From positions 11,135 to 75,134 of IMG/VR virus record IMGVR_UViG_3300044842_000168: DNA of 64,000 nt; one strand, 5' to 3'. A program made the translations under genes and the position numbers. The stretch comes from a virus (Duplodnaviria; Caudoviricetes). Below are positions 3,354 to 52,283 of the stretch, one piece after another. Position 1 is the stretch's first letter. Each line of letters starts with the position of its first letter. The notes beneath the pieces are model-generated. The model was not told the DNA's origin, did no database searches, and saw only the letters and a list, made by a program, of their open reading frames with translations.

Positions 3354-4244
3354 GTGGGCGGTATGCCCATTCAGGACAACGACAACCCCGGTGACGACAA
3401 CGACGACGTGGTGGACCCCGCGCTGGAAGACGACGACGAGGCCGACGACGACAACGATCTCGACGTGGACTTCGACGAGTCCGACGAGGACGAGTCGGAG
3501 GGGGACGAGGAGGACGACGGCACCGGCCCACGCAAGGCGGCCGGCCGGAAGAACTCCGGCGGCACCGGTCGGGACGAGGAGAAGTCGCCGGAGCAGCTCA
3601 AGAAGGAGCTGGACGCCACCCGGGCCAAGCTCGCCAAGTCGCGCCGGGAGCAGACGCGGTGGAAGAACCGCGCCCAGGCGAAGGACACCAAGGCCACGGA
3701 CGGCCGGGAGCCCACGGCCGGCGACAAGCGCGCCGTCAAGGCGGTCGTGGCCAAGGGCGGTACGGACGCCGAGGCGCGGGAGAAGGGTGCCGAGCGCGGC
3801 CTGACCCGTGAGGACGTCGCGGAGATGATCGCCGAGGCGCGGGAGACCGAGGCGCGCAAGGCGGCGGAGAAGTACAAGCCCGTGGCGATCCGTTCCGAGG
3901 CCAAGGACCTGCTGACCGACGCCGGCTACAAGTTCGGCAGCGCCGAGGACCGTGACCGCCGGCTGGACCGCGCGCTCAAGCTGATCGACATGGATCAGGT
4001 CGAGGTGGACGACGACGGCACCGTGCTCGGCCTGGAAGACGAGATCGACAAGCTGCGGGACGACTGGCCGGAGCTGTTCGCGGACGAAACCGAGGAGGAG
4101 CCGGAGCCGGTGAAGCCGGCCGCGCGGCGCCGCGTCGCGCCGCGCATCAACGGTCGGGCCGGCCGCGCGGCGCGCGCCTCAACCCGTGAGTTGAGCGCGA
4201 GCGAGGGACAGCTGGCCTACCTCCGGGGGCACGGACAGCGGTAG
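3354..4244 (+). CDS. Capsid scaffolding protein
   Basis: Acidic disordered N-terminus, coiled coil, LDRALKLIDMDQV...IDKLRDDWPELF motif; directly before the capsid gene. Confidence 0.7.
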   Translation: MGGMPIQDNDNPGDDNDDVVDPALEDDDEADDDNDLDVDFDESDEDESEGDEEDDGTGPRKAAGRKNSGGTGRDEEKSPEQLKKELDATRAKLAKSRREQTRWKNRAQAKDTKATDGREPTAGDKRAVKAVVAKGGTDAEAREKGAERGLTREDVAEMIAEARETEARKAAEKYKPVAIRSEAKDLLTDAGYKFGSAEDRDRRLDRALKLIDMDQVEVDDDGTVLGLEDEIDKLRDDWPELFADETEEEPEPVKPAARRRVAPRINGRAGRAARASTRELSASEGQLAYLRGHGQR

Positions 4245-4263
4245 CTACAACACGAGCGCGCCT

Positions 4264-4299
4264 GAGCCGAGCGGGAAGAGTGGCGTTCCCGCTCGGCTC
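4264..4299 (+). terminator. 14-bp stem hairpin between scaffold and capsid genes
   Basis: GAGCCGAGCGGGAA-gagtggcg-TTCCCGCTCGGCTC perfect inverted repeat. Confidence 0.6.
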
Positions 4300-4411
4300 G
4301 CCAGTAAGTATCTGAACTCCAGTAGTACTATCCCGCAAGAGTGCTACCCACGAGACTCCCGGTAGGGAGTTGGGGCCGAAAGATGACTCCAACAACCGAA
4401 AGGAGCTGGGC

Positions 4412-5365
4412 ATGACCGCCCAGGATTTCTCCAGCTGGATCGCTGAGGAGAAGGGCTCCGACGTTCTCCAGCAGATCATGTTCACCTCCGTCATGGAGCG
4501 GATCGGCGCGCACGTGCCCATGCGTACCAACAAGTTCGACGTCCCGCGTGACGGCGGCGTGTCGGTGGGCGTCGTGGCCAAGTCCGCCTCGTACTCCGAG
4601 AGCACCGCCAACAACGACGACATCGTGCTGACGGCCACCAAGTTCGGCTCGGCGGTCCGGATCGCCGAGGAGGACATCGAAGACACCTCGATCGACATCC
4701 TCACCATCAAGAAGAAGGCGTGGGCGCGCCAGTACGCCAAGATGTTCGACAACGCCTGCCTCGGTACCACGGCGGCGGTCGGCGCGGGCGTACCGTTCAC
4801 CTCGCTGTACCTGGCGCTGAAGTCGGCCGACAGCAACGCCGGCTACTCCGCCAACGCCAACTACACCTCGGCGGCGCCGTCCGCGTTCGGCTACACCAAC
4901 CTGTCCAACGTGATGGGCCTGGTGGAGTCCGGCAACTTCTTCGACGACGGCCAGATGTGCTGGATCGCGCACCCGGCCTTCAAGGCGTACGTCCGGAACA
5001 TCACCGGCCTCACCTACAACGGTGCGGCCTCGGGTACGACCTCGAACGGCATGCCGGTGTTCGTGGACGGCCGGGAGGGCGACGGCCTGCCGCCGACCAT
5101 CCTGGGCTACCCGGTGTACTGGACCCAGGGGGCCAAGACCTCGGCCACCGCGCTGAGCAACCCGGGCGGGAACAGCCTGCTGTTCTTCGTCAACAAGGAC
5201 TACCTCATCGTGGGCGACCGGACCCCGGTGGAGTCGATGGTGGCCGGCGCGGACTCGGGGCCGGCGTTCCTGACGGACGAGGCGCTGCTCAAGGTCCGCA
5301 CCCGCAAGGGCTACGGCACCGGCTTCCCGCAGGCCGCGTCCGTCCTGGAGCTGATCGGCGGCTAA
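4412..5365 (+). CDS. Major capsid protein (HK97 fold)
   Basis: AAGGAG RBS then ATG at 4412; WIAEE...SVMERI, K(F)GSAVRIAEEDIEDT, PTILGYPV, FLTDEALLKVRTRKGY are typical actinophage capsid motifs. Confidence 0.85.
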   Translation: MTAQDFSSWIAEEKGSDVLQQIMFTSVMERIGAHVPMRTNKFDVPRDGGVSVGVVAKSASYSESTANNDDIVLTATKFGSAVRIAEEDIEDTSIDILTIKKKAWARQYAKMFDNACLGTTAAVGAGVPFTSLYLALKSADSNAGYSANANYTSAAPSAFGYTNLSNVMGLVESGNFFDDGQMCWIAHPAFKAYVRNITGLTYNGAASGTTSNGMPVFVDGREGDGLPPTILGYPVYWTQGAKTSATALSNPGGNSLLFFVNKDYLIVGDRTPVESMVAGADSGPAFLTDEALLKVRTRKGYGTGFPQAASVLELIGG

Positions 5366-23957: not shown

Positions 23958-24870
23958 GGTGGACCCCTTCCTCCAGCTCGATGCGCGGGGTGTAGATCGT
24001 TCGGTACAGGGCGTCATCCCCCACGCGGTACGCGACTCCCTTGGGCTTCCCGTCCAACACCTTCACCTCGGGGTCGGCTCCCCAGTACGCGTAGTATGCC
24101 ATCCGGGCAAGCTCTGTCATGGAGACGCCCCGGCCGGTGCAGATGTTGACCGGGCCGTCAACCTCCATCTCGGCCATCAGCAGCATGGAGTGAACGAAGT
24201 CGTCGATGTGGATGAAGTCGCGTGTGGCGTCACTCCACACCTCGATCGGGCCGGTGTTGGGCGGTGTGGACTTGACGCGCTCGATGATGGAGGGGAACGG
24301 GTAGTCCAGACTCTGGTCCTCTCCGTAACCAGAGAACGGCCGAACCACGGTCACCCGACCGCCGGCCGCGCGGTACTCCTCGGCGAGCCGCTCACCAACC
24401 ATCTTCTCGAACCCATAGCTGATGTCCGGCCCGATGTGGGCGACGGGGTTGTACACCGGGGCGAAGTCCTCGTGCAGCCTCATCCCCCACTGCGCCTCTT
24501 GCATCGACGTCGGGTACACCGCCGAAGAGGAGATGTAGATGAGCCGCTCGGGCTGCGCCCTGGCCACCCAACGGAACAGCGCACCGTCGATGGAGAGGTT
24601 GCGCGACAGCACCTCCAGCGGGCTGATCTCCATTGTCATCCGGCCACCTATGAACGCGGCGCAGTGCACAGCGAGGTCGTAGTGGACGGCGGTGAAGTAG
24701 CCGGAATCCACCAGGCTCCCTACGCCCCGGTAGTGCCGTTGCACACCAGGCAGGGGCCGCTGGCTATGGCTCGGGAGATCGATGGCGTCCACGGCCCAGC
24801 CCTGCTTCGCGAGCGCTGCGGTGACGTGTCGCCCCACGAAGCCGGCCGCGCCGGTCACGAGTGCCTTCAC
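23941..24870 (-). CDS. NAD-dependent NDP-sugar epimerase/dehydratase
   Basis: VTGAAGFVG, YISSSAVY, YGFEK (YxxxK), VRPFSGYG, RDFIHIDD. Confidence 0.9.
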   Translation of the reverse strand: MKALVTGAAGFVGRHVTAALAKQGWAVDAIDLPSHSQRPLPGVQRHYRGVGSLVDSGYFTAVHYDLAVHCAAFIGGRMTMEISPLEVLSRNLSIDGALFRWVARAQPERLIYISSSAVYPTSMQEAQWGMRLHEDFAPVYNPVAHIGPDISYGFEKMVGERLAEEYRAAGGRVTVVRPFSGYGEDQSLDYPFPSIIERVKSTPPNTGPIEVWSDATRDFIHIDDFVHSMLLMAEMEVDGPVNICTGRGVSMTELARMAYYAYWGADPEVKVLDGKPKGVAYRVGDDALYRTIYTPRIELEEGVHRALRA

Positions 24871-25577
24871 GGCTGGCTCCCGTCCACCATTGTCTGGTCC
24901 TGCTTCAGCCGGCGAATCGCATCCTTGAGGCCGTCGCTGGAGCCGACCCAGCGGTGGTACTCCGCTCGGTCGTGCTCGTTGGTGTAGCGGCTGTTGGCGT
25001 CCTCATACGTCGTGTCCCACTCGGCGCGGCCGGCGTGCGGGTGTAGATGGGTTATCTTGATCTCCGGAAAGTAGCGCAGCGACTGCATCACTTCACCAAG
25101 CACCTTCCAGGCGTTGTCCACGTAGAGGTGATGCAGGCCGGGAGGCGCCATCCATCCGAGCGCCCGTACGATGTTGGCGTCCATGAAGACGGCGGTGGGG
25201 AGCGCTTCGTGCTGGTGCCCGTCGTCTCCGTAGGCGATCATCATCGGCTGCAGCGCATCGTTGAGCTTGGCGTCCCAGCCGCCCGTCTCGAACACGTGGT
25301 CATCCCCGACGAAGCCGAGTATGGTAACCACATCCTCGACGGCATAGGATGCGGCTTGGTTGAGCGTCTGTACCATGTTCCGACGCTTGCTGTCCACGTT
25401 GAGCAGGAACACCCCGGCCCCCGACACAGCATTGCTGTACCCGACCAGATCCGGGTCAGAGCTGTCCACAGCGATGATCAGCCGGGTGCTTCGGTGAACG
25501 CGGGTCAGGCGGAATGACTCGATGAGCCGGGCGACGTTCGCCGGCCGGCCGCGTGATGGACAGATGACGGTGATCAT
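24867..25577 (-). CDS. Glycosyltransferase family 2-like
   Basis: MITVICPSRGRP, GFVGDDHV (DD), HLYVDN, ITHLHP. Confidence 0.8.
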   Translation of the reverse strand: MITVICPSRGRPANVARLIESFRLTRVHRSTRLIIAVDSSDPDLVGYSNAVSGAGVFLLNVDSKRRNMVQTLNQAASYAVEDVVTILGFVGDDHVFETGGWDAKLNDALQPMMIAYGDDGHQHEALPTAVFMDANIVRALGWMAPPGLHHLYVDNAWKVLGEVMQSLRYFPEIKITHLHPHAGRAEWDTTYEDANSRYTNEHDRAEYHRWVGSSDGLKDAIRRLKQDQTMVDGSQP

Positions 25578-25969
25578 TGTTCTCCTCCGGGCCAGACGAC
25601 CCGATAGATGGTATGGCAGTAGACCTTCAACACGCGCCAGCATTCGGGGCATGGCTCGCGTGTGACGTACAGAACGAACCGCGCTCCGCCGTACGCCTTG
25701 AATGCCTGCTGTATGCAGTTGATCTCGGCGTGTGTCGCGATGCAGTTGTGGTACGGCGTATATGGGTCTGGAGCTTCGGTGACGCGTGGACAGTGCCCGG
25801 CCAAGCACGACAGCAGCGAGCCTGGATCGGTGCCGTTGTAGCCAGTGGCGATCAATCGGTTGTCCCGCACCGCTACAGCGCCGACTCGTGACCGAGAGCA
25901 GTCGGCTCGGGCTGCGACAGCGGTAGCGATCCCCAGGAAGTACTCATCCCAGGAGGGCCGGCCAGTCAC
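25574..25969 (-). CDS. dCMP deaminase (ComEB-like)
   Basis: RPSWDEYF, VGAV, ATGYNG, HAEINCI, PCPEC zinc motif. Confidence 0.92.
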   Translation of the reverse strand: MTGRPSWDEYFLGIATAVAARADCSRSRVGAVAVRDNRLIATGYNGTDPGSLLSCLAGHCPRVTEAPDPYTPYHNCIATHAEINCIQQAFKAYGGARFVLYVTREPCPECWRVLKVYCHTIYRVVWPGGEQ

Positions 25970-50042: not shown

Positions 50043-50558
50043 TTACACCTTCTCCAGATATCCGCGCCGCTCCAGCTCCTCCTGGAGCTTCGAAACCCTA
50101 TCGGACACCTGAGCGATGTCGGCCTTGCGCTCAACGTTCTCCTTGCGCAGCTTCTCCACGCGGCGGTTCAGGATCTCTTGCTGCTGCGCCAGCATGGCTT
50201 GCCGGTTGCGCATCTGTCGAACCTCTTCGCGTGTCAGAAGCTGGATATCAGTTCCCTCCAGGATCTCCTGGGCACGCTTGATCCGGCGCCGGGCGCGAAT
50301 CTGTTGCTTGTGCGAAAGCCGGTCGTGCTCCCGAGCCTCCACCATCCGGTATCCGACGCCTCGGACGTTTTCCAGCGTTCGCTTGTGCGATCGCTCCAGC
50401 TCACGAACGGCGCGCCCGACCGGGATGTACACACCACGTCGCGGAAGCTTCAGGATCTTCTGCAGCCTCTCGAACTTGATGACATCGCCGATATCCATCT
50501 TGGCAATGACCTCATAGACCAGCTCCCACTGGCTTTTCAGGCCCTTCGGCTCAAACAT
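50043..50558 (-). CDS. Winged-helix-like plus coiled-coil protein downstream of the pentamer array
   Basis: LENVRGVGYRMV wing-like motif, basic helix, C-terminal heptads. Confidence 0.6.
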   Translation of the reverse strand: MFEPKGLKSQWELVYEVIAKMDIGDVIKFERLQKILKLPRRGVYIPVGRAVRELERSHKRTLENVRGVGYRMVEAREHDRLSHKQQIRARRRIKRAQEILEGTDIQLLTREEVRQMRNRQAMLAQQQEILNRRVEKLRKENVERKADIAQVSDRVSKLQEELERRGYLEKV

Positions 50559-50592
50559 ACCATATTCCTGTCAACAGTCGGTTTGGGATCCC

Positions 50593-51127
50593 CTGCCCTG
50601 CCTAGCCCCACCCTGCCTAGCCTCGCCGTTCCGCGCCTGACCCGGCCAGTTCCATGCCAGACCCAGCCCCGCCGGGTTACGTGCCCGGTAGAGGTATGAC
50701 CCTCTACCGGGCTCCATGCCATGCCCTGCTCCGCCGCGCCCTGCCCCGCCTTGCCTAGCCCGGCCCTGCCCGGCCGCGTTTACGCGCTCCATGCCTTACC
50801 GAGCCATACCGTTCCTTGCACCGCCTTGCCGTTCCATACCGGACCCGGCCCTGCCTCGTTGCGTGGCCCAGAGAGTTTCGAGGCTCTCTGGGCCTCCTTG
50901 CCTTACCGCGCCCGGCCCTGCCGAGCCCAACCTGGCCGCAGCCACACCGCGCCGAGCCGAAGCCGAACCGCGCCGCGCCAGAGCTTGCCATGCCCCGCCG
51001 AGCCGCGCCCCGCCGAGCCTTGCCTTGTAGCGTGGCTCGGGGAGTTTCGAGGCTCCCCGAGCCTTCCATGCCCTACCTTGCCACACCGATCCGCACCCAG
51101 CCCTGCTGTGCCGAGCCTCGCCTTGCC
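50593..51127 (-). ncRNA. GGY-NN pentamer array (putative guide RNA precursor): five units, hairpin-separated
   Basis: 78 pentamers counted by hand (69 GGC/GGT-NN); three 30-nt hairpins at 51034-51063, 50865-50894 and 50683-50712, each followed by a 9-nt ACG linker. Confidence 0.8.
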
Positions 51128-51134
51128 GCGTGAG

Positions 51135-51725
51135 CTATTCGCCGAGCAGCTCGACCTTGGCGTCGAACCGCCCGTACATCCGGCGGAAGTCGCCGAGGCC
51201 CTCGAACCGGCCAGCGTCGGCGGCGATCCGCTCGAACTCCTCCAGCTCCATGATGGAGTAGTCCAACACGAAGTCGGCGGTGAACTCCCACTCCGGGAAC
51301 CACGGGCGGCAGCGTTCCACGCGCTGCTGGCCGATCCGGACGGTGCGGTAGTCCACGAAGGGAGACTCGCCGTCGCCCCACAACGCCTCCTTGTCGCGCG
51401 GGCCGGCGTAGAACAGTGGGGCCTGGAACGTCTCGATGGACAGCCCGCGCTCGATCTTCTTCCCGTTCTTGGTGATACGGGCGCCTCCCAACAGGCAGGC
51501 GAAGATGTTCTCGCCGGGGATGTAGGGGCCGATCTCCTCGTCGTAGTACAGCGCGGCCTCCCAGTCGATCCGCGCCATGGCGGCCCGATCCTCGTCGGTC
51601 TTGGTGCGCTTGGAGCTGAACTCCTTCATCGCCTTCGCGAACTTGTTGCTGGGCGAAGCCGCCTGTGCGCTGTGCATCAAGAGCGGCCGAGTCCCCTTGC
51701 CGGTGAGCCTTACCCTGTTCTCCAC
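51135..51725 (-). CDS. RAMP/Cas7-like protein (Vipr-like effector)
   Basis: VRLTG..TRPLLMH beta-1, PYIPGENIFACL (cf. RAMP P.IPGSS.KG), C-terminal Gly loop GRFEGLGDFRRMYGRF; 7 nt upstream of the array. Confidence 0.7.
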   Translation of the reverse strand: MENRVRLTGKGTRPLLMHSAQAASPSNKFAKAMKEFSSKRTKTDEDRAAMARIDWEAALYYDEEIGPYIPGENIFACLLGGARITKNGKKIERGLSIETFQAPLFYAGPRDKEALWGDGESPFVDYRTVRIGQQRVERCRPWFPEWEFTADFVLDYSIMELEEFERIAADAGRFEGLGDFRRMYGRFDAKVELLGE

Positions 51726-51772
51726 TGCGTTCCCCTTCTCACAAGGAATTGCAACTGAATTGAATATAGTCG

Positions 51773-51792
51773 GTAGACGGATTCGCGTCTAC
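51773..51792 (-). promoter_or_regulatory. 20-bp palindromic operator / promoter of the RAMP gene and array
   Basis: GTAGACG-gattcg-CGTCTAC; -10 TATATT 4 nt downstream. Confidence 0.75.
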
Positions 51793-52283
51793 CTCACCGG
51801 GCTACTCCCGTTCTCATCCAACGGCCTGCCCTTGCCCCACTCGGGGCCCAGCTTCTTCGCCTCGGCCCACTCGATGACGGACGGCGGGTTGAGGTCGCGG
51901 GACAGCGCCCGGAACCGGCTGTAGAGACTTTCCCAGGCTGAGAGGTGCCGGACCTTGACCCGGGACATCTTCGCCGCGAGGGCGGCGCGGATCATCTCCG
52001 CCTCTTGAGCGCTGACGGCCACCTGGGCGTTGTCGGCTGGCTCGGGCTGCTCCTCGGAGCGGACCGAGAGGGCGTCGGTGAACACCCTCTCCATGCCAAG
52101 GATGCGCCGGATCAGCGAGGCCTGGCCGAGACCACCCCAGGTGATCCTCGCCTGCTGTACGGCCAAATGCAGGCCCTCGATGTCCTCGTCTGACAGGGCT
52201 ATCACGGTGGAGTCGGGCGGGATGTCCACCCCGCCCCGCAGCGTCAGTGGCTTCGCGGCCCGGTTCCACAACAAGATCTTCAC
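51789..52283 (-). CDS. Hypothetical protein
   Basis: 164 aa with AAGGAGG RBS. Confidence 0.55.
   Translation of the reverse strand: MKILLWNRAAKPLTLRGGVDIPPDSTVIALSDEDIEGLHLAVQQARITWGGLGQASLIRRILGMERVFTDALSVRSEEQPEPADNAQVAVSAQEAEMIRAALAAKMSRVKVRHLSAWESLYSRFRALSRDLNPPSVIEWAEAKKLGPEWGKGRPLDENGSSPVR

Follow-up and report, generated by a model that had tools for sequence, protein, structure and literature searches.

Does a short gene followed by half a kilobase of five-nucleotide repeats in a phage genome encode an RNA-guided interference system and, if so, of which kind? The question is raised by positions 50,043 to 51,792 of a 64,000-nucleotide stretch of DNA (the window, whose coordinates are used throughout unless a related locus is named) that covers bases 11135-75134 of IMG/VR virus record IMGVR_UViG_3300044842_000168. 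The record, 75,134 bp long, 66% GC and judged 92% complete, comes from an uncultured actinobacterial phage. On the minus strand the order is a promoter-like site, a 196-amino-acid (aa) open reading frame (ORF), ~540 nt of pentamer DNA, a 171-aa ORF and an SNF2-family helicase. The original prediction, made from the letters of the sequence, had taken the 196-aa ORF and the repeats for a RAMP/Cas7-like protein with its guide array and had likened them to recently reported viral systems in which a Vipr protein is paired with GGY/NN guide RNAs (vrRNAs). Those systems, called Viral Interference Programmable Repeat (VIPR), are described in three 2026 bioRxiv preprints (10.64898/2026.04.26.720920, 10.64898/2026.04.26.720927, 10.64898/2026.10.15.759431), and the ORF is a direct homologue of the Vipr protein of Escherichia phage phiSUSP1 (SUSP1). 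By analogy with the published systems, we read the locus as a complete and probably functional VIPR system of a type II-like kind, with a probability of roughly 0.9. As described, VIPR consists of a minimal RAMP protein, Vipr, and a vap accessory gene, is found mostly in viral hosts, and uses vrRNAs made of 9-16 YNNGG repeats and a structured 3′ tail to recognise double-stranded DNA, skipping one base for each NN (10.64898/2026.04.26.720920). The following features in the window correspond to these parts:

51135..51725, minus strand: vipr, a 196-aa minimal RAMP with a GTG start, matched in PDB, tblastn, PHROG, AF2 and Foldseek analyses
51027..51129, minus strand: vrRNA unit 1, 13 pentamers, then ATGGA-A, an 11-bp hairpin with loop CCTCGAAA, and ACGCTAC
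50858..51026, minus strand: vrRNA unit 2, 26 pentamers, of which one is degenerate, with the register slipping twice by 1 nt; a hairpin tail and ACGCAAC follow
50778..50857, minus strand: vrRNA unit 3, 14 pentamers and, inside the run, an ATGGA; its tail is cut down to a remnant (ATGGA, then GCGCGTAAAC) that lacks a long hairpin
50676..50777, minus strand: vrRNA unit 4, 13 pentamers, ATGGA, a 12-bp hairpin with loop GTCATA, and ACGTAAC
50590..50675, minus strand: vrRNA unit 5, 17 pentamers, the register slipping once behind an internal ATGGA, and no hairpin tail
50043..50558, minus strand: vap1-like gene, 171 aa, assigned from PHROG, BLASTP and synteny

The identity of the protein was established by homology. 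The 196-aa product matched PDB entry 36pp, the SUSP1 Vipr protein, over residues 10-191 (E 8.6e-29), tblastn aligned it to the phiSUSP1 gene at 35% identity and 95% coverage (E 4e-27), and it belongs to phrog_4652 (E 5.6e-52), the same PHROG that holds SUSP1 Vipr. The cryo-electron microscopy study of SUSP1 reports one protomer per 5-nt unit, with GGY clamped and NN displayed, and identifies which residues touch G1, G2, Y3 and the backbone of the target (10.64898/2026.04.26.720927); this is the arrangement that the original prediction had proposed for each subunit. Numbering in the SUSP1 gene was checked, with H17 and K33 falling at the positions given in the paper, and the window protein carries the same residues at SUSP1 positions H17, K33, R138, D177 and R179, as H18, K34, R140, D179 and R181. 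SUSP1 W178 is replaced by F180, a position that is still aromatic and lies in a loop rich in glycine (the G-loop), GLGDFRR, at residues 176-182. The three motifs singled out in the original prediction (VRLTG..TRPLLMH, PYIPGENIFACL and GLGDFRRMYGRF) are all present in the ORF at 51725-51135. Pfam returned no family for Vipr, and a search for related loci with the single Vipr protein found nothing in genomes.

The predicted RAMP/Cas7-like fold was borne out by modelling, for which AlphaFold and Foldseek comparison with Cas7 and Csm3 had been suggested. An AF2 model built with 34 homologues (predicted local distance difference test score, pLDDT, 95.5) has a beta-alpha-beta core and a long beta-hairpin at 124-143, and its best PDB fold matches in Foldseek were all Csm3, Cmr4 or type VII Cas7 chains (E ~1e-6, TM-score ~0.5). 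At 196 aa the protein has no room for a second RRM, and on the model it is a minimal RAMP with one RRM core, a G-loop and a thumb. Its start also needed correction, as the source gene call of 180 aa from Met17 drops a conserved N-terminal strand (window 51678-51725) carrying G11, T12 and P14, which are common to SUSP1 Vipr, whereas the GTG at 51725 is preceded by a purine-rich, Shine-Dalgarno-like stretch and fits the homologues.

The repeat tract lies at 51129-50590 on the minus strand (540 nt), beginning 6-8 nt past the vipr stop. Base autocorrelation peaked at lags 5, 10 and 15 (0.485, 0.46 and 0.44, respectively), compared with ~0.21-0.32 at other lags, and segmentation gave 83 NNGGY pentamers, 79 of them with GG. 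The third pentamer position is G in 80/83 units, the fourth is G in 82/83 and the fifth is C or T in 73/83, while the NN positions use 15 of the 16 dinucleotides with an entropy of 3.65 of 4 bits. GGC is commoner than GGT, in keeping with the 66% GC genome. On neither strand does the rest of the 75-kb genome contain a tract of at least 7 units; 63 units fall within such tracts in the array's 576 nt, versus no more than 5 in any other 576-nt window, so that the 5-nt-periodic DNA of the original prediction is a real and unique feature of this genome. A protein-coding reading of the array was ruled out because a 5-nt period is not a codon repeat, and a CRISPR array was ruled out by the period of 5 nt and the lack of a repeat-spacer pattern and of 25-40 nt direct repeats. 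Blocks 2 and 5, with 26 and 17 pentamers, exceed the range of repeats reported per vrRNA. Unit 2 probably arose when two or three guides lost tails and fused, and the slips and internal ATGGA motifs in blocks 2, 3 and 5 may more generally mark guides fused in this way.

Blocks 1, 2 and 4 each end in NNGGA, a hairpin of 11-12 bp and ACG(C/T)(A/T)AC, giving tails of 42-43 nt. Across nine tails from the window and an 88%-identical relative, the hairpin is 92.6% paired, compared with 28-50% for slid registers, and compensatory (double) changes occur at 9 of the 12 stem pairs, a result matched in 0/500 shuffles. The few G-U pairs fit minus-strand RNA only. By analogy with SUSP1, we assume that the tail lies at the vrRNA 3′ end.

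The third part of the system, which the original prediction had passed over although it lies within the coordinates given there, is the 171-aa gene downstream of the array; the Vipr protein and array that it did describe are both present. The last array unit ends 31 nt ahead of the start codon of this gene, whose product belongs to phrog_5926 (E 6.7e-12) together with LittleE gp33, MakoManhole gp77 and the product of the SUSP1 gene directly after vipr (E 1.1e-75). BLASTP gave E values of 4e-07 to SUSP1 Vap1, 7e-20 to LittleE gp33 and 3e-12 to MakoManhole gp77, and a Vap1 homologue follows the array in 6 of 8 actinobacterial loci tested. The AF2 model (pLDDT 80.6) has an H-S-H-H-S-S topology followed by helices at 75-102 and 110-164, and its best Foldseek matches were MarR, GntR and OmpR-type winged helices, all weak (E ≥0.02). 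The model thus hints at a winged-helix-like N-terminal domain with a long coiled coil, which fits the 'WH-like' Vap proteins of the published VIPR work. There was no PDB sequence match for Vap1, and Pfam gave sub-threshold coiled-coil matches only. In SUSP1, both vipr and vap1 are needed for growth on satellite-bearing hosts, and deletion of vap1 phenocopies deletion of vipr (10.64898/2026.10.15.759431).

The locus was then set against known systems. SUSP1 VIPR, of type II, is likewise phage-borne and without cas genes; its Vipr is 33-35% identical with the residues contacting GGY and DNA kept, its Vap1 is in the same PHROG, and its NNGGY arrays lie on the gene strand in tracts that end in ATGG(A/G) and a structured tail. 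SUSP1 differs in having one vrRNA upstream of vipr and three after a 146-aa vap1, in agreement with its published description, whereas the window has the order vipr, array, vap1 and no upstream vrRNA. Its tail is a pseudoknot rather than a plain 11-12-bp hairpin, and the Phe in place of Trp178, the fusion of some units and the preference for GGC over GGT are further differences on the window side. Cas7 proteins are established to assemble as one protomer per fixed RNA step along the guide. The Cas7 proteins of class 1 CRISPR-Cas (Csm3, Cmr4, type VII Cas7) share with Vipr the RAMP fold, with RRM core, Gly-rich loop and thumb, and one protomer per fixed RNA step is also what has been reported for Vipr. 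They are 12-17% identical to it, and the Cas7 step is 6 nt with 1 base flipped while that of Vipr is 5 nt with 3 bases sequestered. Membership of class 1 CRISPR-Cas was rejected: there is no repeat-spacer array, the neighbouring genes include no Cas5, Cas6, large subunit, Cas1 or Cas2, and the locus sits in a phage and not in a cellular genome.

Related loci also pair the gene with an array, which the original prediction had proposed to look for in homologues. Same-strand arrays were present at 15/15 related loci examined, comprising SUSP1, three actinophages, six bacterial genomes and five metagenome contigs. Among the actinobacterial loci are LittleE gp34/gp33, those of the Gordonia phages MakoManhole (gp78/gp77) and Trine (gp41), and, in Nonomuraea, Streptosporangium and Micromonosporaceae, prophage-like loci; their Vipr proteins are 42-60% identical to that of the window and their Vap1 proteins, where compared, 24-38%. 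All share an ACGC motif past the tail, and the metagenome and genome loci have the window's order of vipr, array and vap1. In GenBank the actinobacterial vipr and vap1 genes are annotated as hypothetical, except for MakoManhole gp77, a DNA binding protein, and a Vipr homologue is present in only 6 actinophage records. When the locus was searched against cultured phages by megablast, nothing matched. In Mycobacterium phage LittleE (L003, record 24726-25888), vipr-vap1 and its arrays lie on the opposite strand as an island in the structural module, flanked by the tape-measure gene and the tail genes that follow it.

The nearest relative, with a Vipr 88% identical and the same tail type, is represented by two JGI contigs (L006 and L007). 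Compared with the window, GGY and the tails are kept and every NN string differs. The two contigs encode an identical Vipr, and their arrays (L006 4589-5100 and L007 4589-5060) differ by whole guide-plus-tail units. The difference shows insertion, loss or recombination of units and hence rapid array turnover.

The tails of the more distant relatives take a different form. At 42-60% Vipr identity they are tRNA-like, with a 5-bp acceptor-like stem, a 12-nt linker, a 6-bp T-arm with loop TTCGAnT and then ACGC, and RNAalifold on 18 of them found compensatory changes in 10 of 11 pairs. These tails lie at the following positions within the related loci:

L003 (LittleE): 2747-2927 and 4203-4248
L004 (Gordonia phage Trine): 3806-3853
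L008: 939-984
L009: 1694-2375
L011 (Nonomuraea): 4587-4742
L013 (Streptosporangium): 3673-4736
L017 and L018: within the arrays

The linker-less 12-bp hairpin occurs only in the window and its 88%-identical relative. Because TC is retained in the window loop, as TCGA in two tails, and an A and then CGC come after the helix, just as they do in the tRNA-like tails, the window hairpin can be described as the tRNA-like element minus its linker, and by sequence it looks derived from the tails of other actinobacterial VIPR arrays. The 12-bp helix has the length of a tRNA minihelix (7 + 5 bp), with the TC of the loop invariant and an unpaired A after the helix. On this basis the vrRNA tails of the actinobacterial clade might mimic the acceptor/T-arm half of tRNA, a proposal that we make tentatively and consider less probable than its alternatives taken together. 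ARAGORN called a tRNA of unknown type at the Trine vrRNA tail (L004 3783-3851) and no tRNA in the window locus, and Rfam searches of five loci at E up to 1, with the tRNA-like tails included, gave no match. Trine gp40 (L004 3585-4388), annotated as a hypothetical protein, spans the vrRNA array; this coding sequence and the ARAGORN call look like annotation artefacts of the array. The long arrays of the Nonomuraea locus (L011 3613-4683) and the Streptosporangium locus (L013 3721-4777), with 9-10 repeat tracts after vipr, mix two tail types, the tRNA-like form and a GC-rich hairpin of form GACGGCGGT..CGCG. The VIPR preprints mention pseudoknot tails, staggered arrays and hammerhead ribozymes; the word 'tRNA' is absent from the text of the discovery paper (10.64898/2026.04.26.720920) and the satellite paper (10.64898/2026.10.15.759431), and a route of maturation by host tRNA enzymes was not found in the text of any of the three.

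Upstream of vipr, a consensus scan found one promoter-like site versus 0.2 expected, and its −35 hexamer TAGACG is an arm of a 20-bp palindrome, GTAGACG-N6-CGTCTAC (51773-51792). This palindrome has nine copies in the window, six of them perfect, compared with 0 in 100 shuffles.

51763..51792, minus strand: predicted promoter-like site TAGACG-17 nt-TATATT
Window 19895, 23238, 29086, 37492, 51773, 54154, 56194, 56521 and 62385: copies of the palindrome

The VIPR locus thus seems to be part of a phage-wide transcription programme, since its promoter-like site overlaps the nine-copy palindrome. Where the original prediction spoke of an operator-controlled promoter, the repeated palindrome and its overlap with the site hold good, and the control by an operator is a conjecture from that overlap. 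As it had also stated, no cas genes and no nucleases adjoin the locus; the neighbours are Vap1, the SNF2 helicase and a 164-aa protein without a family match. The 164-aa ORF (51789-52283), which lies upstream of the promoter-like site, matched nothing in Pfam or PHROG, the 88%-identical relative has a 160-aa gene at the matching position, and nothing indicates that it is a VIPR member.

Targets were sought for the guides in several collections. In the phage's own 75-kb genome, the best match under the NNx rule was 15-18 of 18-28 informative bases, equal to that of shuffled guides; the only perfect match was the array itself, at skip 3, and under the 1-nt skip rule there was no self-targeting. 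Exact scans of IMG/VR with 10-unit cores of units 1, 3, 4, 5 and 2a gave zero matches, as did exact metagenome scans with 11 units of units 1 and 4. A 9-unit tract of unit 2c had one IMG/VR match, on a 323-kb contig of 48% GC, which was rejected as chance since, by a rough estimate, about as many chance matches are expected for 18 specified bases. Unit 1, with up to 3 mismatches allowed, had zero matches in 4 Vipr-bearing genomes and 401 same-class genomes, and comparison of 47 guides from relatives with the window phage, and of window guides with all related loci, stayed at noise level. These negatives are weak because the scans were far stricter than the published 80% NN match with nhmmer: the large collections were scanned for exact gapped patterns of 9-11 units, and the search that tolerated mismatches used a single guide on 401 genomes.

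Several observations weigh against a complete and functional type II-like system. An intact hairpin tail is present in only 3/5 units, and unit 2 runs to 26 pentamers with register slips. The GGY pattern is broken in 14 of the 83 units, perhaps a sign of partial decay. Where the four other aligned homologues (SUSP1 and three actinophages) have the pi-stacking G-loop Trp, the window protein has Phe, and no target was found for any guide in the scans above. The type II-like assignment, a judgement from sequence comparison, draws on the presence of a Vap1 homologue and on the resemblance to SUSP1. Most of these points would also suit a decaying or partly inactive remnant, in which the protein is intact and much of the array no longer gives working guides. 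The tail-less units 3 and 5 and the two slips in unit 2 speak for it, the internal ATGGA motifs resemble leftovers of lost tails, and scans stricter than the published criterion turned up no targets. However, Vipr and Vap1 are full length with key residues kept, three canonical units remain (13-26 pentamers with a tail), and the arrays of close relatives are turning over rather than eroding, so that we regard a remnant as quite improbable.

The downstream gene raises a second alternative, namely that the effector is the helicase and that the locus belongs to a helicase-associated VIPR type rather than to the silencing-only type II.

50040-48169, minus strand: SNF2-family helicase, starting 3 nt past the vap1 stop

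Its position hard against vap1 on the same strand and in the same order in the 88%-identical relative L006 speaks for such a type, and types III-V carry nuclease or helicase vap genes (10.64898/2026.04.26.720920). The L006 arrangement is explained by its belonging to the same phage lineage as the window. Homologues of the helicase occur in 283 cultured actinophage records, versus the handful of actinophage records with a Vipr homologue, are annotated as DNA helicase in the records listed, and are closest in Streptomyces and Rhodococcus phages (~41% identity). None is annotated or called beside vipr-vap1 in seven more distant relatives (L002-L004, L008, L009, L017 and L018), for which reason the helicase is not counted in the system and an effector role for it seems very improbable. 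That the vrRNAs instead control the timing of the phage's own genes is barely credible, since, although the palindrome-promoter motif above the locus is common to eight other window sites, guide matches to the 75-kb genome are no better than those of shuffled guides and published VIPRs likewise lack self-targets.

Returning to an intact type II-like VIPR system, a mechanism can be proposed by analogy with SUSP1. A phage promoter would drive minus-strand expression of vipr, the vrRNA array and vap1, and the array transcript would be cut into vrRNAs, each an NNGGY run capped by a hairpin tail. Vipr would then polymerise into a ribonucleoprotein filament with one protomer per pentamer, with H18, R140, D179, F180 and R181 predicted to clamp GGY so that NN is displayed, and the displayed NN would read double-stranded DNA with one base skipped per pair (NNxNNx). 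With the help of Vap1, the filament may stop a competing mobile element, for example a satellite, prophage or rival phage, from being transcribed; silencing of competitors was also the output that the original prediction had favoured.

VIPR as a type of system was already published in 2026, and knowledge of how it works is unchanged by this locus; what is specific to the lineage is the locus order, the form of the tails and the array fusions. The locus adds a well-resolved, high-GC actinophage example to a family so far characterised in E. coli and Pseudomonas elements, its array between vipr and vap1 is a departure from the SUSP1 order that is worth follow-up, and comparison of its relatives indicates that near-identical phages gain and lose whole guides. 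The series of tails from tRNA-like to plain hairpin bears on vrRNA maturation and, if the tRNA mimicry is true, maturation of the array would pass to the tRNA-processing enzymes of the host, RNase P and/or RNase Z.

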